Source of the DNA: Parcubacteria bacterium C7867-007
GTDB lineage: Bacteria; Patescibacteriota; Minisyncoccia; Phycocordibacterales; Phycocordibacteraceae
Length of the DNA: 64,000 bases
Direction of reading: 5' to 3'
NCBI GenBank assembly: GCA_001189195.1
Contig: LFCQ01000006.1
Span: 56,841-120,840, forward strand
Of the stretch, positions 1 to 64,000 are shown one piece after another. Position numbers and translations under genes: made by a program. Positions within the stretch are counted from its first letter, which is position 1. Every line of letters starts with the position of its first letter. The notes beneath the pieces are model-generated. The model did no database searches. It worked only from the letters and a program-made list of their open reading frames with translations, and was not told where the DNA came from.

Positions 1-22
1 TGCGATCTACGTCGCAGTTGCG

Positions 23-376
23 TTGCTCCTGTTCACTAACGGAGGAGCTACGTTTGCTGGGTACGCTCTCTCGAGAGAACGCACTCGAGAGAAGTATATG
101 CACATGGAGATATGGGGAAGGACCTCCTTCATCTACAATCTTCTCCTGCTCATAGTGGTGGTGAGTGCGCAGTATGTCATCGTACAAGGCAGACCCTCGA
201 CGCTGTTCTGGGTGCTTCTTGGGTTTGCGACCATCACGGTGATCTTGTCGTCAGTCCTGGTGTTCTTCAAGAAGTGGGCGGATCGAAACCGTCTCCACAG
301 AAAAGTCGCTGTTCCCTATGCGCTCATTGCGCTTGTGGCGGCCATCACGGGAGTGATGTTTGCATACCGGCTCTGA
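23..376 (+). CDS. hypothetical membrane protein (3 predicted TM segments)
   Basis: ORF with hydrophobic segments; convergent terminator hairpin downstream. Confidence 0.4.
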   Translation: MLLFTNGGATFAGYALSRERTREKYMHMEIWGRTSFIYNLLLLIVVVSAQYVIVQGRPSTLFWVLLGFATITVILSSVLVFFKKWADRNRLHRKVAVPYALIALVAAITGVMFAYRL

Positions 377-377
377 A

Positions 378-409
378 AGAAGCCGCCTGCGCGTAGCGCA
401 GGCGGCTTC
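378..409. terminator. bidirectional intrinsic terminator hairpin (GAAGCCGCCTGCGC/GCGCAGGCGGCTTC)
   Basis: perfect GC-rich inverted repeat between convergent genes. Confidence 0.6.
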
Positions 410-426
410 AAATCATTTCATACTAC

Positions 427-900
427 TTACTTCTGCTCTTCTTCGGCAGCAGGTGCAATGATCTCCTCATTAATTGTTTTGCGGAGTTCATTAAATTCAT
501 GGGTTAGCATAGCGAGCTTTTCATCTGTGCCGTCTTCAATATCAATGAATTCATCACGTGCAGGACCACTAGCACGAATGATCTCATCAAGCTTTAGATG
601 AATGGCATGAGCATCACGGTTCTGTGTGTTCTGAATAAGGAACACCATAAGGAAGGTGAGTATGGTCGTTCCGGTGTTAATCACCAGTTGCCACGTATTT
701 GAGAAGTTGAACAACGGACCACTTGCTGCCCATATCAGAACAAACAGAATGGCAACAAAGAAGCCCATGGGCGAGCCGGCAATACGACTCGTCTTCTGTG
801 CAGCTCTCCGGAAGATGTCATTCATGATGTTGTCAGTACCGTGCTTAAGATCCGCGCTCGAAACACTTGCAGCTTCCTGCAAACAGCTTTGCCACACCAA
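427..900 (-). CDS. low-affinity iron permease (Fet4-like, PF04120-type) family membrane protein; true start possibly M at 825
   Basis: motif SGPLFNFSNTWQLVINTGTTILTFLMVFLIQNTQNRD typical of this family. Confidence 0.5.
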   Translation of the reverse strand: MVWQSCLQEAASVSSADLKHGTDNIMNDIFRRAAQKTSRIAGSPMGFFVAILFVLIWAASGPLFNFSNTWQLVINTGTTILTFLMVFLIQNTQNRDAHAIHLKLDEIIRASGPARDEFIDIEDGTDEKLAMLTHEFNELRKTINEEIIAPAAEEEQK

Positions 901-1199
901 TCAAGATGATAAGGGTTGGCCAAACGATACGAATGATATCTGCACCAAGGTACCCCATGTTTCCTGCAAGGAAGGAACCTCCAAATAGGATGATAAGGAT
1001 TGGCTGTACTAAATGGTGAGGGCAGCGGCACGCAGAGGTCGTATTGAGATGGTTCATGAACTGAAATTATGTGGGTATACGCTAAGAATAGCAGGGTATG
1101 AGCTGCTGCTTCTGAATCAGGTGGATAGTCTTTAAGATTGAAAAAATGACGGAATTGGGTAGGATGAGCAGAACGGACCAAGTTGGTTCGTTTTCGTTC

Positions 1200-1271
1200 G
1201 CCGATGTAGCTCAGGGGTAGAGCAACTCCATGGTAAGGAGTAGGTCGGCAGTTCAATTCTGCCCATCGGCT
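1200..1271 (+). tRNA. tRNA-Thr (anticodon GGT), no encoded CCA
   Basis: cloverleaf: acceptor GCCGATG/CATCGGC, D arm GCTC-AGGGGTA-GAGC, anticodon loop ATGGTAA, T arm GGCAG-TTCAATT-CTGCC. Confidence 0.8.
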
Positions 1272-1276
1272 CTCGT

Positions 1277-2186: not shown

Positions 2187-2312
2187 ACAAGAATGTTGAC
2201 GAATTTATCATTGAGCAATAATATTATTAGCGATGAGGGGCACCTGCAAATAAGCAAGAGTACTGGGAAAGGCGGCCGAAAGGTCGTTTTTCTTTTTTGC
2301 TATACTCACCCC

Positions 2313-3194
2313 ATGAGTCCTGAGGAACGCCTAGCAGAAATAGAAGAGCTAATGATGTCTCCAACTTTCTGGAGCGATAAGGAGGCTGCACAGAAAGTAG
2401 TACGTGAATACCAATCCCTTAAAGAGGGAGGTTCTGGTGATGGACATGATGGTGGTTCCGCAACCCTGGCTATTCTTGCGGGAGCAGGGGGTGATGATGC
2501 TGAAGACTTCGCACGCATGTTACGTGGGATGTATGAAGGCTATGCAGATGAAAAAGGATGGAGTGTACGTGAGCTCCATGCCAACGAGAATAATCATGGA
2601 GGGTACCGTAACCTACTCCTTGATATAGACGGGAGGGGTGCATACGGACGCTTGAAGCATGAGTCTGGGGTGCACCGTCTTGTACGTATCTCCCCCTTTA
2701 ATGCCAACGATAAACGACAGACATCTTTTGCGCTTGTGGAGGTCTTGCCCGTACTAGCACCAAACGAGCAGACAGCACTCAATCCAGAAGATCTTGAGGT
2801 CACCTTTGCACGTTCTGGTGGAGCGGGAGGACAGAATGTGAACAAACGAGAGACTGCTGTACGTATTACCCACACCCCAACAGGAATTTCTGTACACGTA
2901 TCTAGTGAGCGTAGTCAGCAAGCAAATAGGGACAAGGCTGTTTCACTTATCCAGGCAAAGATATTCGCACGCGAAGAAGAGAAACGTGATGCAGAAGCAA
3001 AGGGACGTTCTATCGCAGCAACCACAGCGAATGAGTGGGGCAGTCAGATACGTTCCTATGTATTGCACCCATACAAAATGGTAAAAGATCACATAACCGG
3101 CCACGAATCACATGATCCAGAGGCTGTTTTGGCGGGAGATCTGGATGCGTTTATTGACGCATCCACAAATTCTGGGCAAGAGGGTGAAGGGTAG
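2313..3194 (+). CDS. prfB: peptide chain release factor 2 (no programmed frameshift; N-terminally short)
   Basis: SPF and GGQ motifs; aligns to RF2 from about residue 28 of B. subtilis RF2; TATACT box 12 nt upstream of ATG. Confidence 0.85.
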
Positions 3195-3211
3195 GGTATA
3201 ATGACCCGGTC

Positions 3212-3892
3212 ATGATCTATTTCGACAAGGTGACCAAGCTATACCGAGACGGGACTCCCGCTCTTGAAGACATCACCCTATCGATTGCTCCTAAGGAATT
3301 CGTTTCTATCGTTGGTCACTCAGGCGCAGGCAAGACCACTCTCCTTAAAATGCTTCTTGCAGAAGACGCACCGACAGAAGGCACGGTCTATTTTGAATCA
3401 ACAGATGTGCACTCGCTCCCAAAGAGCCTTCTGCATCACTACCGTCGCAAGATTGGTATGGTCTTCCAAGACTTCCGTCTCATTCCAAACAAGACTGCGT
3501 ACGAGAACATTGCTTTTGCTATGGAAGCAGCAGGTCGTCATGATGATGAGATCGCTTCAGATGTACCTCATATTCTTGATCTGGTAGATCTTGGTAGCAA
3601 GGGAGGACACTTCCCGCACCAGCTTTCAGGAGGAGAGCAACAGCGTGTGGCTATTGGTCGTGCAATCGTAAACCAGCCAGATGTGATTGTGGCTGATGAG
3701 CCAACGGGGAACCTAGATCCGGTAAATACCTACGAGATCGTGGAGATTCTAAAGAAGGTTAACGAACTGGGAACAACGGTGCTTATCACCACACACAATA
3801 AAGGTGTGGTGGACGCGATGGGTAAGCGCGTTATTACTATGGAGCGTGGACGCATAACCCGTGATGATGCGCACGGCCAATATATTCTTTAG
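3212..3892 (+). CDS. ftsE: cell division ATP-binding protein FtsE
   Basis: Walker [13 protein letters not shown] signature LSGGEQQR, Walker B; TATAAT 9 nt upstream of ATG. Confidence 0.85.
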
Positions 3893-4810: not shown

Positions 4811-6454
4811 ATGGCACTCGAAGGACACAAATACATATTCGTTCTCGGTGGCGTCATGTCGGGCGTTGGTAAGGGGGTCGCCACCTCAAGCATGGGACTT
4901 ATCCTGCAGCAGCGTGGATACGGTGTGAACCTCGTAAAGATCGACCCGTATCTAAACGTAGACGCGGGTACCATGAATCCAACAGAGCACGGAGAGGTGT
5001 TTGTACTCAAGAGTGGTCTTGAGACAGATCAGGACATGGGTAACTATGAGCGCTTCCTTAACCGTGATCTAGGGCCGGAAGACTATATGACCTCAGGTAT
5101 GGTGTACCAGACGGTTATCAACCGTGAACGGGCACTGGGATATCACGGAAAGTTTGTTGAAACTATCCCCCATGTTCGAGATGAAATCATTGATCGCCTA
5201 ACCACAGCTGCGGCACATAACGGAAGCCGTATCTCTGTGATCGAGATTGGAGGAACCGTGGGTGATTTTCAGAATGCTCTTTTCATTGATGCTGCTCGTG
5301 TGATGCGTCTCAAGAATCCTAACGATGTTCGCTTTGTCCTTGTTTCGTACCTTCCGGTACCAAACACCATTGGTGAAATGAAGACCAAACCAACACAGAG
5401 TGCAGTGCGTGAACTGAACTCATATGGGGTGCAGCCAGATTTCATCGTTGCTCGATCTAATCATGCGATGGACGAGAAACGCAAAGAGAAACTAGCTATA
5501 TGGTGCAACGTGCAGCCTAACCACATAATCTCTGCGCCGGATGTGGACTCTATCTATGATGTACCACTCAACTTTGAGCAGGATAACCTAGGAGACCTCC
5601 TTCTAGATGCGCTCTCTCTTTCCAAAGAGAAGGTTGCTGATTTCACTGAATGGAATAAGTTTGTCGCAGGAACAAAGGTAAAGGACGCAGAGGTTAAGAT
5701 AGGAATTGTTGGTAAGTATTTTGATACGGGAGACTATATTCTTTCTGATGCATATCTCTCAGTTATTGAGGCACTTAAATTCTCTGGTGCAGAACTAAAA
5801 GTGAAACCAAAGATTGAGTGGATCAATGCAAAGAAGCTTGAAAGCGATGAGGATCTTGAACAGCTCAGCCAATACGATGGCATTATCGTTCCCGGTGGAT
5901 TCGGGGAGACTGGTATTGAAGGGAAGATTCGTGCAGCTCGGTTCTGCCGCGAGAAAAAGATTCCATACTTTGGCCTTTGCTATGGAATGCACATGTTAGT
6001 GATTGAATATGCACGCAATGTTCTGGGTCTTGAGGGTGCACATACGGTAGAGATCAACGCAGAGACAAATTATCCTGTGGTGGATGTGATGCCGGATCAG
6101 AAGGCGCATATCTCTGAAGGGAAGTACGGAGGTACCATGCGTCTTGGCTCATATACAGCAAAGCTTGGTGAAGGAACCATTGCACGTGAGGCATATGGAG
6201 CCGATGCTGTTGAGGAGAGACATCGTCACCGATACGAAATCAATCCTGAATACGTACCACAACTCATTGAGAAAGGTCTGGTGTTCTCTGGTACTAGTCC
6301 CGATGGGGTGCTTATGGAAATTGCTGAACTCCCAAAGAGTGAACACCCGTTCATGCTTGGGTGTCAGTTCCATCCTGAACTCCAGGCTCGTCCTCTTGCA
6401 CCGCACCCACTCTTCACTGCCTTCCTAAGGGCATCCATAGAGAAGAAAGGGTAG
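4811..6454 (+). CDS. pyrG: CTP synthase
   Basis: N-terminal GGVMSGVGKG synthetase motif and C-terminal glutamine amidotransferase domain. Confidence 0.9.
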   Translation: MALEGHKYIFVLGGVMSGVGKGVATSSMGLILQQRGYGVNLVKIDPYLNVDAGTMNPTEHGEVFVLKSGLETDQDMGNYERFLNRDLGPEDYMTSGMVYQTVINRERALGYHGKFVETIPHVRDEIIDRLTTAAAHNGSRISVIEIGGTVGDFQNALFIDAARVMRLKNPNDVRFVLVSYLPVPNTIGEMKTKPTQSAVRELNSYGVQPDFIVARSNHAMDEKRKEKLAIWCNVQPNHIISAPDVDSIYDVPLNFEQDNLGDLLLDALSLSKEKVADFTEWNKFVAGTKVKDAEVKIGIVGKYFDTGDYILSDAYLSVIEALKFSGAELKVKPKIEWINAKKLESDEDLEQLSQYDGIIVPGGFGETGIEGKIRAARFCREKKIPYFGLCYGMHMLVIEYARNVLGLEGAHTVEINAETNYPVVDVMPDQKAHISEGKYGGTMRLGSYTAKLGEGTIAREAYGADAVEERHRHRYEINPEYVPQLIEKGLVFSGTSPDGVLMEIAELPKSEHPFMLGCQFHPELQARPLAPHPLFTAFLRASIEKKG

Positions 6455-6497
6455 CCGTTGATTTTAATAAATATAGTGTTATAGTTACGTTAGAGTC

Positions 6498-6512
6498 GTA
6501 TCAGTTCGATAC
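6498..6512. promoter_or_regulatory. operator-like palindrome GTATC-AGTTC-GATAC upstream of XRE regulator 1
   Basis: inverted repeat 22 nt upstream of TTG start; paralogous site at 7023-7037 carries compensatory changes. Confidence 0.45.
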
Positions 6513-6533
6513 GAAGTATTTGGGGAGAGTGTC

Positions 6534-6914
6534 TTGGACGAAATTGATATCAACCTCGGTCGTCGTTTGCGTCGCCGTCGCCGTCTGTTGGGTCTGACCC
6601 AACAAGAACTCGCACATGCAAGTGGGGTTCGATTTCAGCAGATCCAGAAGTATGAGTGTGCCGCGAACCGCATGAGTGCCGCTCGTCTCTGGCAACTCGC
6701 TGAAGTTCTGGAGGTCCCGGTCTCCTACTTCTACGAGGGCCTCACCCGTAATCAACGGGAAGCTCTGGAACAGGAGACGGTCTCGTCAGCGAACGCAGCC
6801 ATGGCTAGCAAGGAGACGCAGGACCTGATCCATGCGTACTACAAGCTCGGAGAACGTCCTCGGCGACGCCTCCTCGATCTTGCTAAAGCCATGAACGGCG
6901 AGGTCGAAGCGTAG
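6534..6914 (+). CDS. XRE-family HTH transcriptional regulator, PraR/PhrR-like (TTG start, GGAGAG SD)
   Basis: RLRRRRRLLGLTQQELA...GVRFQQIQKYE...SAARLWQLAEVLEVPVSYF; about 60% GC. Confidence 0.75.
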   Translation: MDEIDINLGRRLRRRRRLLGLTQQELAHASGVRFQQIQKYECAANRMSAARLWQLAEVLEVPVSYFYEGLTRNQREALEQETVSSANAAMASKETQDLIHAYYKLGERPRRRLLDLAKAMNGEVEA

Positions 6915-6934: not shown

Positions 6935-6965
6935 CCGGCGGCCCCAAGGGTCGCCGGTTCTTTTG
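6935..6965 (+). terminator. intrinsic terminator CCGGCGGCCCCAAGGGTCGCCGG + TTCTTTT
   Basis: GC-rich hairpin with T tract; identical copy at 7332-7362. Confidence 0.8.
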
Positions 6966-7022: not shown

Positions 7023-7037
7023 ACATCAGTTCGATGT
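7023..7037. promoter_or_regulatory. operator-like palindrome ACATC-AGTTC-GATGT upstream of XRE regulator 2
   Basis: same architecture and spacing as 6498-6512. Confidence 0.45.
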
Positions 7038-7059
7038 GACGAATGAGCGGGAGAGTGTT

Positions 7060-7308
7060 TTGGAAGATATCAATTTGCATGTCGGAAGGCGTATGCGCAT
7101 ACGCCGTCGTCTGGCAGGTTTCTCTCAGCAACAGGTTGGGGCTAAGTGTGGGGTGACCTTCCAGACGGTCCAAAAGATGGAATCTGGTCAGGTCGACATT
7201 TCGATAAAGCGACTCTGGAAACTCAGTGAGGTATTGGGTGTCCCCATAACCTACTTCTTCGATGGATACGGTGAAACTGATGACGGTTCTCCAGTAACCT
7301 CCTCGTAA
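7060..7308 (+). CDS. XRE-family HTH transcriptional regulator, paralog of 6534..6914 (TTG start; the ORF track extends it to 7000)
   Basis: nucleotide-level conservation with copy 1, including the GGGAGAGTGT-TTG ribosome-binding region. Confidence 0.7.
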   Translation: MEDINLHVGRRMRIRRRLAGFSQQQVGAKCGVTFQTVQKMESGQVDISIKRLWKLSEVLGVPITYFFDGYGETDDGSPVTSS

Positions 7309-7331: not shown

Positions 7332-7362
7332 CCGGCGGCCCCAAGGGTCGCCGGTTCTTTTT
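7332..7362 (+). terminator. intrinsic terminator, duplicate of 6935-6965
   Basis: identical hairpin CCGGCGGCCCCAAGGGTCGCCGG + T tract. Confidence 0.8.
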
Positions 7363-9314: not shown

Positions 9315-10085
9315 ATGGAAATTGATCAGCACAAGAATAAGTTCGGGAGCCAGGCTGAGAACTATACAAAATATCGACGACCATACATGAGTGAAGTGTA
9401 TGATCTTCTTTTCTCATTAGTACCAGAAGACAGTAAAAGGATTCTCGATATCGCATGCGGTACCGGTAAATCAACTGAGCCACTATTACGCTCGGGCCTT
9501 GCAGTTGATGGGGTCGATATTGATCCGTTGATGATCGACGAAGCAAAGGGTCAGGCTAAGGTAAAGAATTTAGATATTACGTATGCGGTTTCAGAAGTTG
9601 AGCACCTTCCATATGAAGACGGAAGCTTTGACGTGGTAACGGTTGGCACCGCATTCCACTGGTTTGTAAACGAGACGGCAATGAATGAGATAAAACGAGT
9701 ATTGAAAAAGGACGGTCTGCTGTTCGTGTACTGGACTCTCACCACCAAGGATGTACCAGAAGAGGATGCGATACCTGCTGCAATCTTTAGGGAATTTAAT
9801 TGGGAGAAAGTTCCATCGGAATTACGTGATCTTGAATACATATCATCTTTTTTCAAGGAACAAGACATGCAGAATGTTTCCACTGAACGCCTCCCATTTA
9901 CGCACAATGATTCAGTAGAAGACCAGGTCGGACTTATGAAGACTGCCTCAAGCTATGAGGTATTGCCCGAGGAAGACAAAGAACGCTTCATAGCAGCAAT
10001 TCAGGCAGCTCTTACTGAACAGTTGGGAAGTCGTCCCTATTTTATCTATGAGGAAGAAATACAGGTTTGCTACGGGTACAGGTAG
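9315..10085 (+). CDS. class I SAM-dependent methyltransferase
   Basis: ILDIACGTGKST motif I, DIDPLMID motif II. Confidence 0.7.
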   Translation: MEIDQHKNKFGSQAENYTKYRRPYMSEVYDLLFSLVPEDSKRILDIACGTGKSTEPLLRSGLAVDGVDIDPLMIDEAKGQAKVKNLDITYAVSEVEHLPYEDGSFDVVTVGTAFHWFVNETAMNEIKRVLKKDGLLFVYWTLTTKDVPEEDAIPAAIFREFNWEKVPSELRDLEYISSFFKEQDMQNVSTERLPFTHNDSVEDQVGLMKTASSYEVLPEEDKERFIAAIQAALTEQLGSRPYFIYEEEIQVCYGYR

Positions 10086-10093
10086 ATAAAAAG

Positions 10094-10140
10094 ATCCCCA
10101 CGTCGTACCAAACCCCACAGCTCGCTAACTATAGTCATCA
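10094..10140. repeat. intergenic linker repeat copy R1 (CCCCACGTCGTACCAAACCCCACAGCTCGCTAACTATAGTCATCA)
   Basis: shares the core CCACGTCGTACCA.ACCCC.CAGC with copies at 10840, 11402, 11903, 12844, 13455 and 20111. Confidence 0.7.
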
Positions 10141-10557: not shown

Positions 10558-10620
10558 TAGACTGCCAGCTCGTATTTTTCATACCTTTATGTTTAGATTC
10601 CTTTAGAAAGGAACCATACG

Positions 10621-10788
10621 ATGCACACACCTCCCGAGTTTGACGAAGCTATGGTTGAGGCACCAAAGCCGGAAAAGTCGCCGGAGCCCGGGTCTGACGA
10701 ATATTACGCAGTGCTCGGAAGAGAGATCGACAAGGGCCCGATCGGTGTTCCTCACCACCGAGGTCCGTTATCGGGCCCAATAGATTGA
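10621..10788 (+). CDS. small hypothetical protein (55 aa), GC-rich, with GAAAGGAAC RBS
   Basis: ATG with upstream AGGA and terminator hairpin immediately downstream; not in the ORF track because it is under 60 aa. Confidence 0.4.
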   Translation: MHTPPEFDEAMVEAPKPEKSPEPGSDEYYAVLGREIDKGPIGVPHHRGPLSGPID

Positions 10789-10792: not shown

Positions 10793-10866
10793 GGAGCCGC
10801 CAGTACCGAAAGGGAACGGCGGCTCTGCTACTTAAGCAAGGTTCCCACGTCGTACCAACCCCCAGC
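10793..10866 (+). repeat. linker module R2: terminator hairpin GGAGCCGCC..GGCGGCTC + TACTTAA + core GGTTCCCACGTCGTACCAACCCCCAGC
   Basis: about 85% identical to module at 12796-12870. Confidence 0.75.
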
Positions 10867-10891: not shown

Positions 10892-11398
10892 ATGCGTGTA
10901 ACCATTCTCGGACTTCCTGGAAGCGGCAAGTCCACTTTGGCTCGAAAGATTTCAGAAAAGCTAAATATTCCATATATACATATAGATCGTTTCTGGCTTG
11001 AAGCGGGAGGTGGGCACAATAGCAAAACTACACCTGATCCTGAAAAGGCACATGCAAATGTACGAGAGAAAGTCCTTGAAGCGATACAAGCTGAGTCGTG
11101 GGTATCAGATGGGGTATATCGCCTTGTACAGCCAGAGATAGCAAATAGGGCAGATGCAGTTGTATTTCTTGATATTCCGCTTTGGGAACGATTACTTAAT
11201 CACGCGGCCCGCACCATACACAGAAAGAGTCGACATGATGAGATGACTTTCTGGGGCGATATGAGTTTCTTTCTTGAAATAGTAAGTCGTGATTTACGGA
11301 AGAAAGGGAAAATACAGAGTCTGGTTGAAAGCTATAAGTCTAAGGCAATCATTCTGAAATCCCGTAAGGCGATAGCAAACTACCTTGGAACTCTTTGA
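10892..11398 (+). CDS. P-loop NTPase, adenylate-kinase / topology-modulation-protein-like
   Basis: MRVTILGLPGSGKSTLARKISEKLNIPYIHID Walker A start. Confidence 0.6.
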   Translation: MRVTILGLPGSGKSTLARKISEKLNIPYIHIDRFWLEAGGGHNSKTTPDPEKAHANVREKVLEAIQAESWVSDGVYRLVQPEIANRADAVVFLDIPLWERLLNHAARTIHRKSRHDEMTFWGDMSFFLEIVSRDLRKKGKIQSLVESYKSKAIILKSRKAIANYLGTL

Positions 11399-11401
11399 TT
11401 A

Positions 11402-11462
11402 GGGTTCCCACGTCGTGCCAAACCCCCAGCACTTGACTTTTAATGCATTTAGTGCTATTAAT
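11402..11462 (+). repeat. linker module R3: core GGTTCCCACGTCGTGCCAAACCCCCAGC followed by TTGACT-N17-TATTAAT promoter
   Basis: repeat core directly followed by sigma70-like -35/-10 for the next gene. Confidence 0.7.
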
Positions 11463-11507
11463 AATACAGATCAATCGGCTCGTTGAGCCCACTACTGGAG
11501 ACTTCAA

Positions 11508-11804
11508 ATGAATCCTCGAAATACAACGCTTCTTGCGCTCTCGGCAGTTGCAGCGGCGGTGTTTGCTCTGGTCCCGATCATCGGCATCATGTACAACGGA
11601 GCTACGGCCCAGCTTCTCGAGATGTTCGGTGAAGCTATGGGCTGGGAGTGGCTCGATCACCGCCATCCACACAGCCTTGCCGTCGCTTGGGTGATCTTCA
11701 CCCTGATCTTCTTCTTCGCCCTCAAGCTGTGGTTGAAGTTCGGGAAGCGAGAAGACCCTCTCGTTCGCCTCTTTCGGGAGGCAGGCGGGGAAAAGCGTCA
11801 GTAG
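11508..11804 (+). CDS. small membrane protein (98 aa), GC-rich
   Basis: two hydrophobic helices. Confidence 0.4.
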   Translation: MNPRNTTLLALSAVAAAVFALVPIIGIMYNGATAQLLEMFGEAMGWEWLDHRHPHSLAVAWVIFTLIFFFALKLWLKFGKREDPLVRLFREAGGEKRQ

Positions 11805-11854
11805 CGCGAATCCACCAGCTAGCATCAAACGGCTCACCCAATATGCCGAAATGG

Positions 11855-11945
11855 GAGCCCCGCACCAGTATGCGGGGTTTTACATACATCAGTGCTCGAG
11901 TATCGTACCAAACCCCCAGCAATTGACTTTTATATAATATCGTGT
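11855..11945 (+). repeat. linker module R4: terminator CCCCGCACCAGTATGCGGGGTTTT + core TCGTACCAAACCCCCAGC + TTGACT promoter
   Basis: same organisation as R2/R3. Confidence 0.7.
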
Positions 11946-11996
11946 TATTTAAATAGAACCAGTTCTTTGCGTATCAAAAAGAGAAGGAAATAGACC

Positions 11997-12791
11997 ATGT
12001 CAAAAGACATGCTCGGCCCGCTTCCGCGGGCTCTCGTTCAGGTGCCGAACAGGCATCACGGTCTCGTACTGGACATTCTCCACAAGCTCGCAGGTGGGCA
12101 GGGGGATTCCGTGCGAAGTAATCTGAGTGCGGCACTTCGGGCACCATCTGAACCTGTGCGGCAGCAAGCTCCGCCGGTCGTACCTATTACGGATGTACCT
12201 GCGGAGTATCGAGCGTTTTTCGAAGCTCTGCCGCCGCTGGATCGTCAGTGGGTGCTCGAGAATCCCCGTACTGCCGTTCCGCTATTCGCACGAGCTGTTG
12301 CTACGGCGCATATCGAGAGCTATCCCTTGGTGCTTGTCGGGACCGCCGACTTTGCTGAAATCAGTGAATTCCGTCCTGCTGAGAAATATCAGCCAGGACA
12401 GCAAATCGACGGCATTCTAATATCACCGCAAATGCATAAGAGCTTCAAGGAGCTTTGCCAGACGGTTGAGCACAACACGCCTGCTGCGACACTGAGATTC
12501 CATTCCTCAAATACCAAGGCCAAAGCATCCAGAATTCTGAGTAGCTTCGGCGACAAGGCAGACACCACGCTCGGCCAGCTCTGGGAATTGATCCAACGGG
12601 AAGAGAAGGATGATCTCCTTCAGGCCAGCCTGCACACGACCATCTACATGTGTTTCCGTAAGGCCGACGGCAACCGTTGTTACGTCTCTGCTTCGTACGC
12701 ACCAGACGGCTGGTACTTCCGGGTGAGGTTTGGTGAGACTGGCTACCATGGGAGGCCCCCGAATAAGGTCGACCGCTTTATCACTCACTGA
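11997..12791 (+). CDS. hypothetical protein (264 aa), about 60% GC
   Basis: ORF with GC-rich codon usage distinct from backbone. Confidence 0.45.
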   Translation: MSKDMLGPLPRALVQVPNRHHGLVLDILHKLAGGQGDSVRSNLSAALRAPSEPVRQQAPPVVPITDVPAEYRAFFEALPPLDRQWVLENPRTAVPLFARAVATAHIESYPLVLVGTADFAEISEFRPAEKYQPGQQIDGILISPQMHKSFKELCQTVEHNTPAATLRFHSSNTKAKASRILSSFGDKADTTLGQLWELIQREEKDDLLQASLHTTIYMCFRKADGNRCYVSASYAPDGWYFRVRFGETGYHGRPPNKVDRFITH

Positions 12792-12795
12792 ACAA

Positions 12796-12890
12796 GGAGC
12801 CGCCTGTTTCCGAAAGGGAACGGCGGCTCTTCTACTTAATATAGGTTCCCACGTCGTACCACACCCCCAGCTCGCAAACTATAGTCATCG
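12796..12890 (+). repeat. linker module R5: terminator hairpin + TACTTAA + core GGTTCCCACGTCGTACCACACCCCCAGCTCGCAAACTATAGTCATCG
   Basis: near-duplicate of R2; 3' part matches R1. Confidence 0.75.
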
Positions 12891-12948
12891 TAGGTAAAAA
12901 GAAACCGCCCGAACCGTAAGGAACGGGCAGTTCCTTTGGTTCGGGCAG

Positions 12949-13359
12949 TCATGGTGCCGGATCGGCAAGTGCCTTAGGTACCCCATACATGTTCCACTTG
13001 TCGTCGAAGCGGATGGCGAGGTTCGTCGTCTGTTCGGGATACGCTCTGTGGACGGACCACTTCAGCATCTCGAACAGTATCGGGGTCATCACGTGATTTC
13101 GGAAGTGAGCGAAATTCACGTATGGGTTGATCCCCATGGGCATGTCGTTCGCTTCGTGCATCCCCTCATGTTCAGTCTTCACCTGATCGTAGAGGATAGC
13201 GATCGCTTTCTGTTCAGTCGTCGCCACGCCGATCAGGACGGAGTTCGGCTGACGCTCCAGCAGACGCTTCGGGGGCGGACCCAGTATGTGCCTAGAGGAC
13301 ATGAGCCCCGATAGGCGCTCATGCATCTCTGCAGTGATTAGTTGCATATCTTCTGCCAA
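12949..13359 (-). CDS. hypothetical protein (136 aa), GC-rich
   Basis: ORF; terminator-like hairpin GCCCGAACC..GGTTCGGGC downstream on minus strand. Confidence 0.4.
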   Translation of the reverse strand: MAEDMQLITAEMHERLSGLMSSRHILGPPPKRLLERQPNSVLIGVATTEQKAIAILYDQVKTEHEGMHEANDMPMGINPYVNFAHFRNHVMTPILFEMLKWSVHRAYPEQTTNLAIRFDDKWNMYGVPKALADPAP

Positions 13360-13416
13360 CGTACTCTCCCTAATTCAAATTCAACCTAAGTGTATTTTAA
13401 CATCTATTGTATAAAA

Positions 13417-13492
13417 ATCAAATATGGCCTAGACACTCGATTTCGGTTCGAATATCGTACCACACCCCACCTCGTCATCGTAGCTGTATAAT
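13417..13492 (+). repeat. linker module R6: second-family repeat + degenerate core TCGTACCACACCCCACCTCGTCATCGTAGC + TGTATAAT
   Basis: matches 10515-10557 and the core family; extended -10 sits 7 nt before ATG at 13500. Confidence 0.6.
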
Positions 13493-13499
13493 TTAGGAT

Positions 13500-13865
13500 A
13501 TGAACAAAACATCTAAACTTATTCTCGTCGCAGTAATTGGAATAATCGTTGGTGCCGGAGGTACTTTGGCTCTATCACCAAAGAATAATACTCAACCTGA
13601 AATGATTTCTCATGGAAACATGAATATGCAGGGAGAAATGGGGAGAATGGCTCAGGTCCTCGAAGGGAAGACCGGTGATACGTTCGACCAAGCATTTTTA
13701 AGCGAGATGATCGTACATCACCAGGGCGCTGTTCAGATGGCTCAAGCTGCACTTCAGAACGCAAAGCATCAGGAGATTAAAGATCTCGCTACAAAGATTA
13801 TCTCGGCACAAGAGTCAGAGATTATCGAAATGCAGGGTTGGCAGAAGAGCTGGTACGGACAGTAG
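13500..13865 (+). CDS. DUF305 (ferritin-like) domain protein with N-terminal TM
   Basis: MIVHHQGAVQMAQAAL...ISAQESEIIEMQGW motifs. Confidence 0.6.
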   Translation: MNKTSKLILVAVIGIIVGAGGTLALSPKNNTQPEMISHGNMNMQGEMGRMAQVLEGKTGDTFDQAFLSEMIVHHQGAVQMAQAALQNAKHQEIKDLATKIISAQESEIIEMQGWQKSWYGQ

Positions 13866-13930
13866 GAGAGATTCCCAAGGGTAAGGCCGTCTCAAATGAG
13901 ACGGCCCACGTACGCTTTGGTTTGTACTTG

Positions 13931-14458
13931 CTACTCGATACGGATTGGTCGAACAATAGGTATTCGAATCCGTAGCATATTCTCTGCACGTGCACCGAAC
14001 TGAGTTCGAAGTCCACTCACGCCATCGGTGAAATACTTAGCATACACATTCACGGCATTGAAGTTGAGTGCATATGCCCACACCACAAAGGTGAGATGGC
14101 TTTCAATCCGATCGTTGCTTTCCTTCGTCCACGTCAGGAGTGCCTGCATGCATTCCTGTATGAGACGTGGAGCAAGTCCTTTGCCTTGGTGTGCGGGAAG
14201 GATGCCGATCTGATCCAGCTCTATAACTGGTTCAGCACGGTGGAATCCTCCATGCAGTTGCCAACCTGCGTATCCCACCACCACGTCATCTTCTTCAACC
14301 ACAAAGTACTGGTAGAGGGGGAATGCATTGAACCAGCACGTAGCCCATCGCTGGGCTCCATCAAACTGGTCACGATCTCCCAGGAAGACGCTTCCGTTGA
14401 TGAGGCCAATGGCCTCGAGGTCCCGTTCTTCGGCACGCCGAATATTGATGGTGCTCAT
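13931..14458 (-). CDS. GNAT family N-acetyltransferase
   Basis: LDQIGILPAHQGKGLAPRLIQE acetyl-CoA binding motif. Confidence 0.75.
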   Translation of the reverse strand: MSTINIRRAEERDLEAIGLINGSVFLGDRDQFDGAQRWATCWFNAFPLYQYFVVEEDDVVVGYAGWQLHGGFHRAEPVIELDQIGILPAHQGKGLAPRLIQECMQALLTWTKESNDRIESHLTFVVWAYALNFNAVNVYAKYFTDGVSGLRTQFGARAENMLRIRIPIVRPIRIE

Positions 14459-14514
14459 GATTCTTCTCCCTGCTTCTATTCTCTAGAACCGCACATACAC
14501 CTTTTGGTTACTAT

Positions 14515-14553
14515 AAATAAAAAACCGCCCCCTCGCGCCAACGAAGGGGTTAG
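14515..14553 (-). terminator. intrinsic terminator for minus-strand gene 14582..14911
   Basis: hairpin CCCCTCG..CGAAGGGG followed on minus strand by TTTTTTATTTAT. Confidence 0.55.
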
Positions 14554-14581
14554 GCTTCGTTGCAACAAAGTGACGGATACG

Positions 14582-14911
14582 CTATCTCATTGCTGAGGGC
14601 ACCAAGGACACAAGGTCCTGGGCGGTCATGCCCAGAGCGTTGGCGAGGTTGAGTGTGTTGACCAACATCTTCGTAGTCGCCATGCGCAGAGCTTCTGGAT
14701 CAAGCTCGCCGCCGTGGTCGTAGTTCTCAGCCTGCGCAGCAATTATGCCTCCGGTCTTGGCTATGTGCGCACTGCTGTGCCGTACAGCGAAGGCCAATGT
14801 CTTTTCAGGTGTGCTGAGATCCCCATTTGGGTACTTCTCTTGGGTGAAGGGGAATCCATCCCCGATCACCTGCATCAACGAAGTGAGATCGGTAGTTGGT
14901 GTCATGGTCAT
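14582..14911 (-). CDS. MazG-like nucleotide pyrophosphohydrolase family protein (tentative)
   Basis: about 109 aa all-alpha pattern STPEKTLA...LVNTLNLANALG resembling small MazG-like proteins. Confidence 0.4.
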   Translation of the reverse strand: MTMTPTTDLTSLMQVIGDGFPFTQEKYPNGDLSTPEKTLAFAVRHSSAHIAKTGGIIAAQAENYDHGGELDPEALRMATTKMLVNTLNLANALGMTAQDLVSLVPSAMR

Positions 14912-15040
14912 GGAACGCTCCTTGTCTGGATGGAAGGTACCACAAAACTATCTAAGCCTCCAACATAGATAAACAGGGATGATGGTGTCGTCTCTGTGCA
15001 TGTATTCGCACATGCATTGCGGAGGATATACACTAACACT

Positions 15041-15430: not shown

Positions 15431-15435
15431 AAGAA

Positions 15436-15478
15436 ATCGCCTGGCGTGTGAGGATGCAATCCTCACACGCCAGGCGAT
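15436..15478. terminator. bidirectional terminator (ATCGCCTGGCGTGTGAGGATGCAATCCTCACACGCCAGGCGAT)
   Basis: long perfect inverted repeat between convergent genes. Confidence 0.7.
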
Positions 15479-15491
15479 CAGTCCCAACTCC

Positions 15492-20101: not shown

Positions 20102-20110
20102 ATTAATCTA

Positions 20111-48458: not shown

Positions 48459-48472
48459 GTGATCTATTTTCC

Positions 48473-48859: not shown

Positions 48860-48917
48860 ATATGAGAATTATACCCCTATGACAAAGCGTTGCCGATAGG
48901 CTAGGATTAAGAGACGT

Positions 48918-57891: not shown

Positions 57892-58452
57892 TTATCCGAC
57901 GAGGAATCCAGCTATAGCACTGATCACGAAGAGAATTGCGATAACAACGGTTGCGTTGAATAGGAACTTCTCCGCGCCACGGCGCTTATAGAATGTCGAT
58001 GCGAAGTTGTCGCCTCCGAATGCACCTCCTAGACCAGCACCGCGCTGTTGAAGCACGATTCCGATGATAAGGAGGAGGGAGAGAACCAGCTCCGCGTATG
58101 GCAATATCGCCTTGAGTGTCTCCATCTCACGAACGCCGGCGCAAATGGCCAGGGCTGCGCCGCTGAGTCCGATGATCAGCAGCGCTTCGTCGCTGAACCC
58201 TGGGACCGTCACCAACGTGATGATGCAGCCGACCATGAGTGTCGACATCAGGCCGGTCAGGATCCCGCTGGTGAGCGACCTTTCCTTCAGGAACATGAAG
58301 GTCGCAAAAGCATAGCTGATCGCACTGACGCACAGTAGCGGTACTGCGATCGTCATGAGGCCTGGAAAGTCCTGACGGTAGAAAATGATGCCGGGTATGA
58401 ACCCGCACAGAGCGAGCACGATACCGATGAAGAAAAAGATTGTGCGGAACAT
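57892..58452 (-). CDS. secG: SecG preprotein translocase subunit (C-terminal about 77 aa from M at 58125) with about 110-aa N-terminal membrane extension, or two adjacent ORFs
   Basis: LLLIIGIVLQQRGAGLGGAFGG...RRGAEKFLFNATVVIAILFV typical SecG. Confidence 0.6.
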   Translation of the reverse strand: MFRTIFFFIGIVLALCGFIPGIIFYRQDFPGLMTIAVPLLCVSAISYAFATFMFLKERSLTSGILTGLMSTLMVGCIITLVTVPGFSDEALLIIGLSGAALAICAGVREMETLKAILPYAELVLSLLLIIGIVLQQRGAGLGGAFGGDNFASTFYKRRGAEKFLFNATVVIAILFVISAIAGFLVG

Positions 58453-60693: not shown

Positions 60694-60729
60694 CCCCGTC
60701 GATCTTCCAGATCGGCGGGGTTTCTCGTT
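60694..60729 (+). terminator. intrinsic terminator CCCCGTCGATCTTCCAGATCGGCGGGG + TTTCT
   Basis: hairpin with one G-U pair. Confidence 0.6.
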
Positions 60730-60931
60730 AATGGTCACAGGGCTGATGTTCGTTCGGGTCAATCACGGTGCACCCAAAGCCTGACGCGCGCGCTACTGAG
60801 CCAAGCTTTACCTGGGGTTGTGCATCCCGTGTTTCTCGACGCACATGCAGCACGTATGCCACGCTGCAGGCACCAAAGGGTAGGGATACGAGAAATGCGT
60901 CCAGAAGCGTTCTCGCTACGATTTCAAGCAT
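60728..60931 (-). CDS. small hypothetical protein (67 aa), about 60% GC, AAGGAG SD
   Basis: AAGGAG 7 nt upstream of ATG on minus strand. Confidence 0.45.
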   Translation of the reverse strand: MLEIVARTLLDAFLVSLPFGACSVAYVLHVRRETRDAQPQVKLGSVARASGFGCTVIDPNEHQPCDH

Positions 60932-61037
60932 GGGAATGCTCCTTTATTCCTCTTGCACAGTACGCATGAATACATGCTTTTGCAACTATTGAGTGCTTTT
61001 GGCAATGCAGTATACTTAGTACATAACCGCAACCTTT

Positions 61038-61598: not shown

Positions 61599-61633
61599 TG
61601 TATTTATAGGGTTTTCTAAGGCCCAATCTCTGT

Positions 61634-62533
61634 ATGGCAACGCTCTATCAAGAACGATCGAATAATGTGTGGCGAACGGTATTACTCATGTCGTTCTTCT
61701 TGGTGCTTGTTATCGCTATTGGATACGCTTTTAGCTGGTATTACGGCGCACCAGAGATTCTGTATGTGGCTGTTGGATTTGCTCTCATCATGAATTTCTG
61801 GAGCTACTGGTTCTCTGATAAGACCGTACTTGCCCTTACCGGTGCTCGCCCTGCAACCCGTGAAGAGTTCTTTGACCTCTACACCGTTACGGAAAACCTC
61901 ACCATCACTGCTGGGCTTCCTATGCCAAAGCTCTATGTACTTGATGATCCTGCACCGAATGCCTTTGCCACAGGACGTGATGAAAAGCATGCGGTAGTGT
62001 GTGCAACCACAGGACTTCTCTCAATGATGACTCGTTCTGAGCTAGAGGGAGTGATTGGACATGAACTGTCGCATATTAAGAATCGAGACATACTTATTAT
62101 GACGGTGGCAGTGGTGCTTGCTGGATTCCTTGCGATTGTCTCAGACATGTTTGTTCGCATGTCTCTTTTTGGAGGTGGTAATAGCGACAACGGTCGTGCA
62201 AACATCCTCTTTATGGTGCTTGGATTGGTTGCAATTATACTTGCACCAATTGCGGCACAACTCATTCAGATGGCTATCTCACGTCGTCGTGAATACCTTG
62301 CAGATGCCTCTGGTGCGCTCCTCACCCGATACCCTGAAGGATTAGCTTCAGCGCTTCAGAAGATTGGTAGCTATGGCCAGCCTATGCAGCATGCGTCACA
62401 CGCAACTGCCCATCTATTTATTGGAGATCCGTTTGGTGAGAAGGAGGGTAAGACAGGACAGTGGATCAACGGTCTCTTTGCAACACATCCACCGGTTGAG
62501 GAGCGTATCAAAAGACTGCTCGGTCAGAGCTAG
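61634..62533 (+). CDS. htpX: zinc metalloprotease HtpX (M48)
   Basis: HELSHIKNRD HExxH, 4 TM. Confidence 0.85.
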   Translation: MATLYQERSNNVWRTVLLMSFFLVLVIAIGYAFSWYYGAPEILYVAVGFALIMNFWSYWFSDKTVLALTGARPATREEFFDLYTVTENLTITAGLPMPKLYVLDDPAPNAFATGRDEKHAVVCATTGLLSMMTRSELEGVIGHELSHIKNRDILIMTVAVVLAGFLAIVSDMFVRMSLFGGGNSDNGRANILFMVLGLVAIILAPIAAQLIQMAISRRREYLADASGALLTRYPEGLASALQKIGSYGQPMQHASHATAHLFIGDPFGEKEGKTGQWINGLFATHPPVEERIKRLLGQS

Positions 62534-62557
62534 GAACCGTGCTATAACAGTGCAATT

Positions 62558-62644
62558 GGAGGCGTCGCATAGCGGTCTAGTGCACCACCTTGGAAAGGTG
62601 GCAGGCTCGAAAGGGTCTCGAGAGTTCGAATCTCTCCGCCTCCG
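62558..62644 (+). tRNA. tRNA-Ser (anticodon GGA), long variable arm, no encoded CCA
   Basis: acceptor GGAGGCG/CGCCTCC, anticodon stem CCACC/GGTGG loop TTGGAAA, long variable arm, T arm GAGAG-TTCGAAT-CTCTC. Confidence 0.75.
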
Positions 62645-62653
62645 CTACGTTGT

Positions 62654-63037
62654 TTAAGAAATAACAGTGCTTGCGCCCTTAACCACACGTTGCTTGCTGT
62701 TTACCTCAAGGATACACGCAACCTCACCGTCTGAGAGAGTTACGTTTGTAGATCCAGGACCATCGATTGTTACCGTACCTCCGCTATCATTTACCACTTC
62801 GCATTCAAACCCGTTTGCGAGCGTTCCTAGAGCAGGAACGGTAATAGTGATTGCAGCAGTTGCAACAATACGCTGGCTGTTGTTTGCAGCAGTTAGGGTG
62901 TATCCAGTACCTTTGGTTGATTCAACAAGTTTGCCACCAACATTATTTCCGTCAGCATCGTGTCCAACAAGCAAATAAGTATTAAGGGTGTCTCCCCAGG
63001 TTCCTGAGTCTGCGCCCGGTGTTGGTAGGTTTGCCAT
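62654..63037 (-). CDS. hypothetical protein (127 aa)
   Basis: ORF abutting tRNA-Ser. Confidence 0.35.
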   Translation of the reverse strand: MANLPTPGADSGTWGDTLNTYLLVGHDADGNNVGGKLVESTKGTGYTLTAANNSQRIVATAAITITVPALGTLANGFECEVVNDSGGTVTIDGPGSTNVTLSDGEVACILEVNSKQRVVKGASTVIS

Positions 63038-63116
63038 ACATCAGCAGTATAGCAAAGATATTTCACACGCACTCCTGATTATTGTAGATGTAGTAGATAT
63101 GGTCTAAAATTACCCA

Positions 63117-63296
63117 ATGAACTTCTTCGGCCTAGGTATCCCCGAGATACTGCTCATCCTCTTTATTCTCCTATTATTCTTCGGTAAGGATAAGCTACCT
63201 GAACTCGCAAAGAGTATCGGGCACTCATTCAAGGAGCTTCGTGAAGGATTTGAGGGTGGCACAAAGGGCGAACAGAATGGAACCAAGAAAAAGTGA
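63117..63296 (+). CDS. tatA: twin-arginine translocase TatA/E (59 aa)
   Basis: MNFFGLGIPEILLILFILLLFFGKDKLPELAKSIGHSFKEL; under 60 aa so not in the ORF track. Confidence 0.8.
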   Translation: MNFFGLGIPEILLILFILLLFFGKDKLPELAKSIGHSFKELREGFEGGTKGEQNGTKKK

Positions 63297-64000
63297 TGAA
63301 GAGCTGAGTCTCTGGCAACATCTTGCAGAGCTCAGGAATTACTTCTTCATATCCCTTACCGCACTGATTATTGGTGCAGTAGTCACTCATAACTTCAATA
63401 AAGAGATAATTGAGCTTTTGTTTGCGCCCCTGGGCACACAATCTCTGGTATTCCTCTCCCCACTGGACCCACTTCTCTTTATATTTAAAGTCGACTTCTT
63501 CGGCGGCTTTCTGCTATCCCTCCCCGTTATAGCGTTCTGCGCATTCAGGTTCATTGCTCCTGCGCTTGGAAAGCGTAGTAATTGGCACGTAATAGCATTT
63601 TTGATGATCTGTACCGTGCTGGTACTAGTGGCGAGTATATACACCTACCTACTCCTTTTGCCCCTTAGTATTGGATTTCTGCTCTCAATTCAAGTACCTG
63701 GTGTAGAGAATTTCTTTACCGCAGACCGTTATATGGACTTTGCTCTCATGCAATTGACCATAATGATCGGTATATTCCAGATCCCCTGCATTATTGCTGC
63801 TCTAGCGTATACTCGCGTACTTGATCCTGGTGTCATTGCCCGACGGCGTGGTCTGGCCTATCTCGTGGCCATCATTGCACTCTCCATACTTACTCCAACC
63901 AGTGATCTCTATACGCTAGGACTCTTTCTAGTACCAACACTTCTCCTCTTCGAGATTAGTCTCATCATTGGAAGGGCGGTATACTCAATACGAACTAGTG
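63277..64000 (+). CDS. tatC: twin-arginine translocase TatC (partial, runs off window)
   Basis: LWQHLAELRNYFF... multi-TM TatC pattern; no stop within window. Confidence 0.75.
   Translation, partial: MEPRKSDEELSLWQHLAELRNYFFISLTALIIGAVVTHNFNKEIIELLFAPLGTQSLVFLSPLDPLLFIFKVDFFGGFLLSLPVIAFCAFRFIAPALGKRSNWHVIAFLMICTVLVLVASIYTYLLLLPLSIGFLLSIQVPGVENFFTADRYMDFALMQLTIMIGIFQIPCIIAALAYTRVLDPGVIARRRGLAYLVAIIALSILTPTSDLYTLGLFLVPTLLLFEISLIIGRAVYSIRTS

Follow-up and report, generated by a model that had tools for sequence, protein, structure and literature searches.

Promoter-like hexamers at native start codons and Shine-Dalgarno sites on GC-rich genes in a 64-kb region of Parcubacteria bacterium C7867-007

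Results

Genes and start classes of the window

The 64,000-nucleotide stretch analysed here (contig LFCQ01000006.1, positions 56,841 to 120,840; hereafter the window, meaning the whole stretch) belongs to the chromosome of the ultra-small Parcubacteria bacterium C7867-007. This organism falls within the Candidate Phyla Radiation (CPR), near Paceibacteria and Kaiserbacteria, and its 702-kb, 48%-GC metagenome-assembled genome (MAG) was obtained from Hanford groundwater (Nelson and Stegen 2015, PMC4508563). Five window products (GcrA, RF2, LexA, DsbA and orf166) are identical to its GenBank proteins of the KND5xxxx series. Our subject is the way its genes begin: about half of the native genes carry a hexamer resembling a -10 promoter element directly before the ATG and probably give rise to leaderless mRNAs, whereas a smaller set of GC-rich genes is led by Shine-Dalgarno (SD) sites. 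The 80 closest RF2 loci in a species-level genome collection are nearly all labelled as members of the Patescibacteria group (Parcubacteria, Paceibacterota, Kaiserbacteria), many of them being filed as 'uncultured Candidatus Saccharibacteria' or 'uncultured bacterium'. The comparison with relatives rests on 80 prfB loci (1.16 Mb from 80 other genomes) and covers prfB neighbourhoods only, a conserved core with few imports; the sister genome referred to throughout is the separately binned C7867-008 (locus L090). The window contains four tRNAs, with no further Rfam match. The curated set of 82 window genes, merged from JGI, Logan and NCBI calls, falls into three classes, in which a gene is called leaderless-type if a TAnnnT hexamer lies 5-9 nt before its ATG (GC3, GC content at third codon positions):

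Leaderless-type: 32 genes, mean GC 0.462, mean GC3 0.43
SD-led: 15 genes, mean GC 0.550, mean GC3 0.60
Neither: 35 genes, mean GC 0.480, mean GC3 0.46

With the addition of a PNPOx-family gene and MFP (31567), the leaderless-type total comes to about 34, or 32-34 of the 67 native genes. A motif of the GGAG type at 3-12 nt was found before none of the leaderless-type genes, the space being filled by the hexamer. Every tightly coupled internal gene falls into the class with neither signal, as do groES, groEL, both csp genes, typA and the RNase J gene. In the window, genes of this class have 17% G at positions -20 to -1, and the leaders of the relatives are likewise A-rich without GGAG enrichment, SD 5-mers occurring upstream of about 3-5% of their genes, close to chance. 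The preliminary description of this DNA had distinguished two initiation regimes, one leaderless and one SD-led. The contrast it drew is real, but a third large class exists beside them, made up of native leadered or operon-internal genes without an SD site, and the host's own initiation looks essentially SD-independent.

The SD-led genes stand apart from the rest in GC content (Mann-Whitney p = 4e-9) and make up 14 of the 16 genes with a GC of at least 0.515, against one of the 66 others (Fisher 8e-13). Comparing GC3 and codon usage between the classes, as the preliminary description had suggested, gave differences on every count: GC3 is 0.60 against 0.43 and 0.46, codon choice in the SD-led genes is shifted to CTG, GCC/GCG, GGC, CCG, ATC and GTC, and TGA serves as the stop in 3 of the 15 SD-led genes against 4 of the 67 backbone genes. 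TTG opens 3 of the 15 and 1 of the 67, the remaining backbone starts being 65 ATG and one GTG, a comparison that is partly circular in that the first ATG was used for many calls.

Hexamers before native start codons

At least 12 backbone genes had been described as carrying a -10-like hexamer 6-9 nt before the ATG and lacking an SD site. All 12 have a TAnnnT hexamer in that position, and none has an SD site or purine-rich motif; Pfam supports the gene identities of this set. They are listed here with four further examples (gap lengths are from hexamer to ATG).

2301-2315, plus strand: prfB, TATACT, 6 nt, ATG 2313; TGC precedes the hexamer, giving an extended -10
3197-3214, plus: ftsE, TATAAT, 9 nt, ATG 3212; promoter within the 3' end of prfB
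13487-13502, plus: DUF305 gene, TATAAT, 7 nt, ATG 13500
16283-16297, plus: DUF2000 gene, TGC-TATAGT, 6 nt, ATG 16295
16749-16763, plus: HAD hydrolase gene, TATAGT, 6 nt, ATG 16761
18624-18641, plus: trhO, TGC-TATAGT, 9 nt, ATG 18639
20923-20937, minus: uppP, TAGAAT, 6 nt, ATG 20925
20961-20975, plus: cupin gene, TATACT, 6 nt, ATG 20973
21685-21700, plus: radC, TATACT, 7 nt, ATG 21698
24788-24826, plus: lexA, TTGACG, 18 nt holding the SOS box CGAACAATTGTTCG, TATACT, 6 nt, ATG 24824 (NCBI start, 188 amino acids (aa))
41379-41395, plus: dsbA, TAGGAT, 8 nt, ATG 41393; site identical in the sister genome
42358-42372, plus: orf166, TATACT, 6 nt, ATG 42370; -10 kept in the sister genome
44062-44076, minus: PNPOx-family gene, TATACT, 6 nt, ATG 44064 (added here)
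47697-47712, minus: msrA, TATACT, 7 nt, ATG (added here)
48857-48873, minus: msrB, TATAAT, 8 nt, ATG; kept in the sister genome (added here)
63035-63051, minus: orf127, TGC-TATACT, 8 nt, ATG (added here)

The starts used in the preliminary description agree with those of NCBI for prfB (293 aa), lexA (188 aa), dsbA (238 aa) and orf166; JGI places all four elsewhere, with products of 333, 170 and 230 aa for the first three. The NCBI start of prfB (KND50407.1, 293 aa) is matched by RF2 of relatives in 80 species, which align from residues 1-6 of this short form, and TAnnnT is found 5-9 nt upstream of the prfB orthologs in 33 of 51 species, often as TTGCTATACT.

In the window, the distance from TATA[ACG]T to the ATG opening an open reading frame (ORF) peaks at 6 nt, and TAnnnT begins at -12 in 15 of the 91 first-ATG ORFs, compared to about 1.7 at other positions. 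The more restrictive pattern TATAMT-N6-ATG occurs five times where 0.81 are expected, a count reached in none of 100 dinucleotide shuffles. A hexamer placed exactly at -12 precedes 14 of 64 first ATGs but only 1 of 285 internal in-frame ATGs (p = 2e-10), the first ATGs having been picked mechanically and blind to the motif. The same peak recurs among the relatives, in 77 of 660 cases from the 29 close loci and 102 of 918 from the 51 more distant ones, with 150 of 983 first ATGs against 46 of 4933 internal ATGs showing the hexamer at -12 (p = 6e-80). The leaderless-type fraction is at least 0.15 in 58 of the 59 related Parcubacteria loci with at least 10 genes (median 0.30), and the peak is therefore a trait of the lineage.

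Aligned on the hexamer, the sites yield tGcTATAcT, an extended -10 (TGn) without a -35 consensus, in which T1, A2 and T6 of the hexamer are fixed by the search pattern and the data-derived part consists of the TGn enrichment upstream and the TATAcT-like middle; the three positions just before the hexamer (-3 to -1) show enrichment of TG and C. A sigma-70 hexamer occupies -12 to -7, placing +1 six to seven nucleotides downstream. The commonest gap is 6 nt (17 of the 32 sites), and transcription is therefore expected to start on the A of the ATG. At lexA, the -35, the SOS operator and the -10 are arranged in canonical geometry that ends 6 nt before the ATG. Three leadered genes, orf86, orf92 and lemA, have this -10 motif at a distance of 16-33 nt, and zfTbcl too has it upstream, where it is kept in the sister genome; presence of the motif at variable distances before leadered genes is how a promoter would behave, the 6-nt peak then representing the leaderless majority. 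Between the sister genomes, -10 boxes are kept despite saturated synonymous sites. Several divergent gene pairs have starts only 40-65 nt apart, namely uppP/cupin (20923-20975; 47 nt, with no space for 5' untranslated regions), msrB/VKOR (58 nt) and YkuD/TspO (40 nt). The hexamer precedes 4 of 13 operon-internal genes (gaps of at most 25 nt), mostly in weak form, and about half of the first genes. A scan of the 13-26 kb part of the window with a generic -35/-10 model found 15 sites where 19 were expected, lexA alone scoring well, and is uninformative because these promoters have no -35. Extended -10 structure, spacing, divergent pairs and relatives thus bear out the earlier reading of these genes as sources of leaderless mRNAs, and native genes of this type are probably transcribed in that form.

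We also note that some genes start 0-6 nt after a tRNA. In two relatives (L010, 2849-2925; L050, 9909-9985), no nucleotide separates the 3' end of tRNA-Thr(CGT) from the prfB ATG, with similar arrangements in L043 and L055 near 9975, and orf213 of the window begins 4 nt past tRNA-Thr(GGT) (1200-1279). Such starts leave no space for a ribosome-binding site and would fit translation of 5'-terminal AUGs. By analogy, tRNA 3' processing could be a source of leaderless mRNAs in these cells, the tRNA punctuation of mitochondria being a precedent for mRNAs made in this way.

SD-led genes and their motifs

The 15 SD-led genes are XRE1, XRE2, orf55, orf98, orf264, orf136, the GNAT gene, orf109, MTase_b, orf225, orf108, orf61, gcrA, a long secG ORF and orf67. 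Their motifs lie about 6-8 nt before the start and are of the AAGGAG/AGGAGG type in five, and GGGAG, AAGGA or AAGGGG in the rest.

6522-6914, plus strand: XRE1, SD-like site GGGGAGAG, TTG 6534; 126-aa HTH_3 regulator, GC 0.57
7048-7308, plus: XRE2, SD-like site CGGGAGAG, TTG 7060; 82-aa XRE1 paralog (48% identity), GC 0.50
10608-10788, plus: orf55, AAGGAA, 8 nt, ATG 10621; GC 0.57, weak SD
11497-16201: mosaic accessory region with SD-led, GC-rich orf98, orf264, orf136, GNAT, orf109 and MTase_b interleaved with low-GC leaderless-type DUF305 and OmdA
24010-24698, minus: orf225, GGGAGG, about 5-6 nt, ATG 24687; GC 0.52
39769-40108, minus: orf108, AAGGAG, 7 nt, ATG 40095; GC 0.55
40260-40457, minus: orf61, AAGGAG, 6 nt, ATG 40445; GC 0.54
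47870-48462, plus: gcrA, AAGGGG, 6 nt, ATG 47882; 175-aa GcrA, GC 0.60, between msrA and msrB
60728-60944, minus: orf67, AAGGAG, 7 nt, ATG 60931; GC 0.55

Canonical AAGGAG sites at 5-7 nt had been proposed for this group as a whole. They are present before 39769-40095, 40260-40445 and 60728-60931, but the XRE pair has GGGAGAG (some 4-6 nt before the TTG, depending on where the end of the motif is set), gcrA has AAGGGG, and orf55 has AAGGAA at 8 nt. Nor are these genes of roughly 60% GC as first described: values range from 0.50 to 0.60 with a mean of 0.55, and gcrA alone reaches 0.60. Outside the original list, the ORF at 14582-14911 has AAGGAG at 6-7 nt. AAGGAG-N6-ATG occurs four times in all against 0.51 expected, two of the four being gene starts (orf109 and orf61). 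AAA17 (10892-11398), immediately upstream of the mosaic region, has neither a -10 nor an SD site.

XRE1 and XRE2 share a conserved leader, CAGTTCGAT...GGGAGAGTGTyTTGGA (6500-6536 and 7025-7062), and each is followed by an identical 30-nt GC-rich terminator hairpin (6935-6964 and 7332-7361), which points to a tandem duplication that included regulatory and terminator sequences. The gcrA coding sequence (47882-48409) is likewise followed by a GC-rich hairpin terminator at 48432-48462. The long secG ORF (57892-58452, minus strand; 186 aa) begins with a hydrophobic, GC-rich (0.57) N-terminal extension of 109 residues behind GGGAG; the conserved core of SecG starts near Met110, and in the JGI annotation the N-terminal part is a gene of its own.

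Origin of the SD-led genes

The preliminary description had taken the contrast between SD sites and -10 hexamers as a marker of foreign origin, and the association with GC content given above, together with the homology of gcrA and XRE1, upholds this view. The product of gcrA is a full-length GcrA (PF07750; E = 9e-53, 179 bits against a cut-off of 26.9), residues 1-162 matching positions 1-154 of the 155-position profile; once its own entry and that of the sister MAG are set aside, the best named matches are GcrA proteins of Phenylobacterium and Caulobacteraceae at 73-78% identity. To our knowledge, GcrA is otherwise confined to Alphaproteobacteria and their phages. One contig of 72% GC whose gene neighbourhood is alphaproteobacterial in type (L091) carries a gcrA (6001-6510; 76% identity to ours) 3 kb from a 126-aa XRE gene (9393-9773) whose product is 73.6% identical to XRE1. 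Matches of XRE1 to plasmids are dominated by alphaproteobacterial genera, which account for all genera named in the top-ten tally; tblastn searches of plasmids with orf264 and orf108 returned no match. This homology shows gcrA and XRE1 to descend from Caulobacterales-like Alphaproteobacteria, while the evidence supporting a likely foreign origin of the other SD-led genes is their composition and codon usage.

The distribution of the two regulators among the relatives is narrow. The prfB-ftsE-ftsX-pyrG block, which the XRE pair adjoins in the window, is kept in 63-80 of the 80 loci; XRE was found in 1 of these 80 prfB neighbourhoods and gcrA in none, gcrA being found otherwise only in the sister genome. 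Both gcrA and XRE are syntenic in C7867-008. Backbone proteins of the two sisters are 85-95% identical, compared to 77% for GcrA and 51% for orf108. Between the sister copies of gcrA (L090 10001-10504; GC 0.60 in the window and 0.63 in the sister), dN/dS is 0.12 with dS of about 1.2; the gene is under purifying selection and must therefore be translated. The gcrA and XRE imports may point to a Caulobacterales host or else to repeated allele replacement. Extending the association of SD sites with shifted GC to the relatives' prfB neighbourhoods gives a weak shift of +0.02 GC (p about 0.05).

The 5' leader of gcrA, about 70 nt long (47799-47881; cgaactttgatacaa..gcaccttgcgaatcatcgcatcatcagtt), is nearly identical between the sisters, beyond what is seen at synonymous sites, and has nothing in common with the upstream sequence of the donor type; it may thus be a regulatory leader gained in the CPR lineage. 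A full-text search of the open-access literature found no paper linking GcrA to Parcubacteria.

Discussion

A proposed scheme of initiation

The best overall explanation, to which we would give a probability of roughly 0.8, is that native genes of this genome are leaderless or SD-less and that the SD-led genes were imported. Native promoters would consist of an extended -10 of consensus tGcTATAcT without a -35, and for about half of the native genes, and at least 55% of those first in an operon, the last T of the hexamer would lie 6 nt (range 5-9) before the ATG. RNA polymerase would then begin transcription on the A of the AUG or no more than 1-3 nt away, and the resulting leaderless mRNA would be decoded by direct binding of ribosome and initiator tRNA to its 5'-terminal AUG. 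Leadered and operon-internal native genes would be initiated from SD-less, A-rich and G-poor upstream regions, and the SD-led genes would have kept the ribosome-binding signal of their donor while being read from host-type promoters tens of nucleotides upstream.

Two other readings of the hexamer have to be considered. It is very improbable that chance matches, together with start codons picked to suit them, account for the pattern. TAnnnT is admittedly loose, matching about 9% of the time by chance over five positions, and JGI and NCBI disagree on the starts of several of the genes concerned (prfB, lexA, dsbA), but the enrichment appears with first ATGs chosen mechanically without regard to the motif, is seen against dinucleotide shuffles and replicates in the 1.16 Mb from 80 other genomes, while alignments of RF2 homologs begin at residues 1-6 of the short form; tested directly, this reading is rejected at p < 1e-9. 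Quite unlikely too, if somewhat less so, is the possibility that TAnnnT is no promoter but part of an mRNA leader, an AT-rich start region that either is unstructured or binds the ribosome without an SD, as happens in Bacteroidota (group B of GeneMarkS-2). Such a role would agree with native upstream regions that are broadly A/T-rich and G-poor and with the absence of a -35 consensus. The motif itself nevertheless has the signature of a sigma-70 extended -10, with a TATAcT-like middle and TGn directly upstream, and is not purine-rich; it peaks sharply at a single position (-12), is rare before operon-internal genes (4 of 13 at gaps of at most 25 nt, mostly weak) in comparison with about half of the first genes, and recurs at variable, larger distances before some genes. 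At lexA it completes a canonical array of -35, operator and -10, and the 47 nt between uppP and cupin are too short for two promoters and two leaders.

The SD-led genes raise questions of their own, one of which is whether they belong to this genome. We give hardly any credence to the idea that the GC-rich patches are assembly or binning chimeras in which alphaproteobacterial reads entered a CPR contig. The sample did hold many other bacterial lineages and each patch is a short island of one gene (0.3-0.8 kb), but msrA, gcrA and msrB stand in an identical context in the NCBI MAG, JGI 3300001199 and Logan SRR2043728 (which may share reads), gcrA and orf108 occupy the same positions in the separately binned C7867-008 (77% and 51% identity), and an identity of only 74-78% to any alphaproteobacterial homolog and a GC of 0.57-0.60 against 0.72 in the donor type speak against a chimera. 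A more serious contender, which we nonetheless consider on balance the less probable view, is that the SD motifs are inherited relics without function: the host ribosome would have lost or would ignore the anti-SD, leaving a single SD-independent native system, and imported genes would be translated poorly or by that same SD-independent route. No 16S rRNA 3' end lies in the window or in the 80 relatives' loci, and the C7867 MAGs lack a 16S gene. The CCTCCT anti-SD motif is undetectable in 52% of Parcubacteria 16S rRNAs (Tsurumaki et al. 2022, PMC9297842), which favours loss of function, as do native leadered and operon-internal genes without SD (groES, groEL, csp genes, typA, the RNase J gene), the near-chance rate of SD 5-mers upstream of relatives' genes (4-5%) and the eroded look of some sites, gcrA having AAGGGG in C7867-007, ATGGGG in C7867-008 and GGGAGAGG on the donor-type contig, and orf108 AAGGAG in C7867-007 against AAGGGA in the sister. 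Working sites are favoured by the TTG starts of XRE1, XRE2 and orf136 behind GGGAGAG, which would be hard to initiate without an SD; by a GGAG-like motif 6-7 nt upstream that is kept in XRE1, XRE2 and the ortholog in L023, a distant relative, although the proteins are only 47-49% identical; and by the purifying selection, and hence translation, of gcrA. SD motifs of the relatives, moreover, peak at -11/-10 (13-14 against a background of about 2.5), and a perfect AGGAGGT lies 5 nt before accessory metabolic genes of the relatives (DHODH, amidohydrolase, QueC, aminotransferase, NUDIX).

Several observations weigh against the explanation that native genes are leaderless or SD-less and SD-led genes imported. 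We infer leaderless transcripts from promoter geometry, and the lack of enrichment in the generic -35/-10 scan leaves the -10 to carry the promoter argument by itself. Gaps of 8-9 nt would leave leaders of 1-3 nt, not zero. At about 9% for TAnnnT at any of five positions, chance should account for some 6 of the roughly 34 leaderless-type calls, and four calls are doubtful: zfTbcl because a better promoter lies at -31, and ftsX, PGbind and orf386 because they are operon-internal. Among the SD-led ORFs, 9 of 15 have no Pfam match and no homolog detected outside the sister genome, and some may be non-genes, since gene callers favour ORFs preceded by an SD. Finally, an XRE gene at the same site in L023 shows no GC shift, so that 'foreign' here means old and not recent.

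Comparison with known systems

The arrangement resembles group C of GeneMarkS-2 (Mycobacterium, Streptomyces, Corynebacterium; Deinococcus-Thermus), in which 25-50% of operons have a Pribnow box 6-8 nt ahead of the start and no SD there (PMC6028130); here the -10 lies mostly 6 nt from the start in about 30-38% of genes and roughly half of operons. The remaining genes of group C carry an SD, whereas the native remainder here has none and SD sites are nearly confined to compositionally foreign genes. Native leadered genes are A-rich, G-poor and free of GGAGG as in Bacteroidota (group B), but group B is leadered throughout, while half of the transcripts here appear leaderless. Haloarchaea (group D) combine a leaderless majority with little or no SD on the rest, the difference being that their starts follow an archaeal TATA/BRE about 26 nt upstream and not a bacterial extended -10 about 6 nt upstream. 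Parcubacteria with anti-SD loss (PMC9297842) belong to the same lineage as C7867-007. The SD-led genes, for their part, share with compositional islands a GC, GC3 and codon usage unlike the backbone, hairpin terminators of their own, a ribosome-binding site of donor type and, for gcrA and XRE1, closest homologs in Caulobacterales; they differ in standing singly, without an integrase or insertion-sequence element close by, and in being syntenic in a sister genome with saturated synonymous sites while still at a GC of 0.55-0.63.

The architecture is thus already known from Actinobacteria and Deinococcus and is mechanistically not new; in this lineage it is widespread. We found no paper on leaderless initiation in CPR, Patescibacteria, Parcubacteria or Saccharibacteria in a full-text search of open-access papers, a scope that leaves novelty unproven. 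The pattern bears on annotation, which for CPR genomes is almost wholly automatic: if half of the genes are leaderless and almost none uses an SD, start calls are systematically at risk. It also offers a candidate mechanism by which Parcubacteria without a 16S anti-SD would initiate translation. An SD site combined with high GC may flag imports in this lineage, as it does here for two regulators from Caulobacterales-like bacteria, and such imports may be a clue to the host of these uncultured cells. A still broader proposal, which we advance tentatively and regard as rather doubtful in its entirety, is that Paceibacteria-type Parcubacteria as a whole gave up SD-guided initiation, with about half of the operons leaderless (some perhaps through tRNA 3' processing), A-rich SD-less leaders elsewhere and the SD surviving only as a donor's fingerprint on imports. 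On this view, the retention under purifying selection of GcrA, a master cell-cycle regulator of Caulobacterales, and of its XRE neighbour hints at a CPR cell that has a Caulobacterales host and takes regulators from it. If true, abandonment of the SD would match, at the level of function, the loss of the 16S anti-SD reported for this group.

Additional features of the window

The mosaic region and its surroundings contain a repeat, GGTTCCCACGTCGTACCAAACCCCC, at 10091-10117, 10838-10864, 11401-11427, 12842-12868 and 20108-20134, two copies of which belong to a 58-nt version (10806-10863 and 12810-12867). Successive plus-strand genes each have a copy past the stop codon, three of the copies within 3-7 nt and two at about 50 nt; the copies are spread over the accessory region from 10 to 13.4 kb with one more after orf181, which gives them a cassette-like look. 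Integron cassettes were considered for the repeats at 10-13 kb and rejected: they do not fit the attC R''/R' consensus, and they are predicted to fold no more stably than shuffled sequence.

A tRNA-like element of about 66 nt is present in two copies (2119-2186 and 42282-42349), the second ending 20 nt before the leaderless-type orf166, and again in the sister genome (L090, about 6839-6907), where it is conserved but for a G-C pair that has become G-U. Its parts are an acceptor-like stem of 7 bp (GCCGGUG/CACCGGC), a T-arm of canonical form (GAGGG-UUCAAnU-CCCUC) and a variable middle hairpin, with no D-arm; neither ARAGORN nor Rfam calls it, and its folding z-scores are about -2.3 to -2.8.

The HAD gene (16761-17378) contains one in-frame TGA (16959-16961), at which gene callers split it into pieces of 66 and 103 aa; it may be a pseudogene, a case of read-through or a sequencing error. 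Recoding of TGA, considered in view of this codon and of the rarity of TGA stops in native genes (4 of 67), was rejected: RF2 is present and long ORFs are intact. RF2 itself (2313-3194) is only 293 aa long, lacking about the first 95 PCRF positions and having no programmed-frameshift site, a short form that is common to all 80 Parcubacteria relatives.

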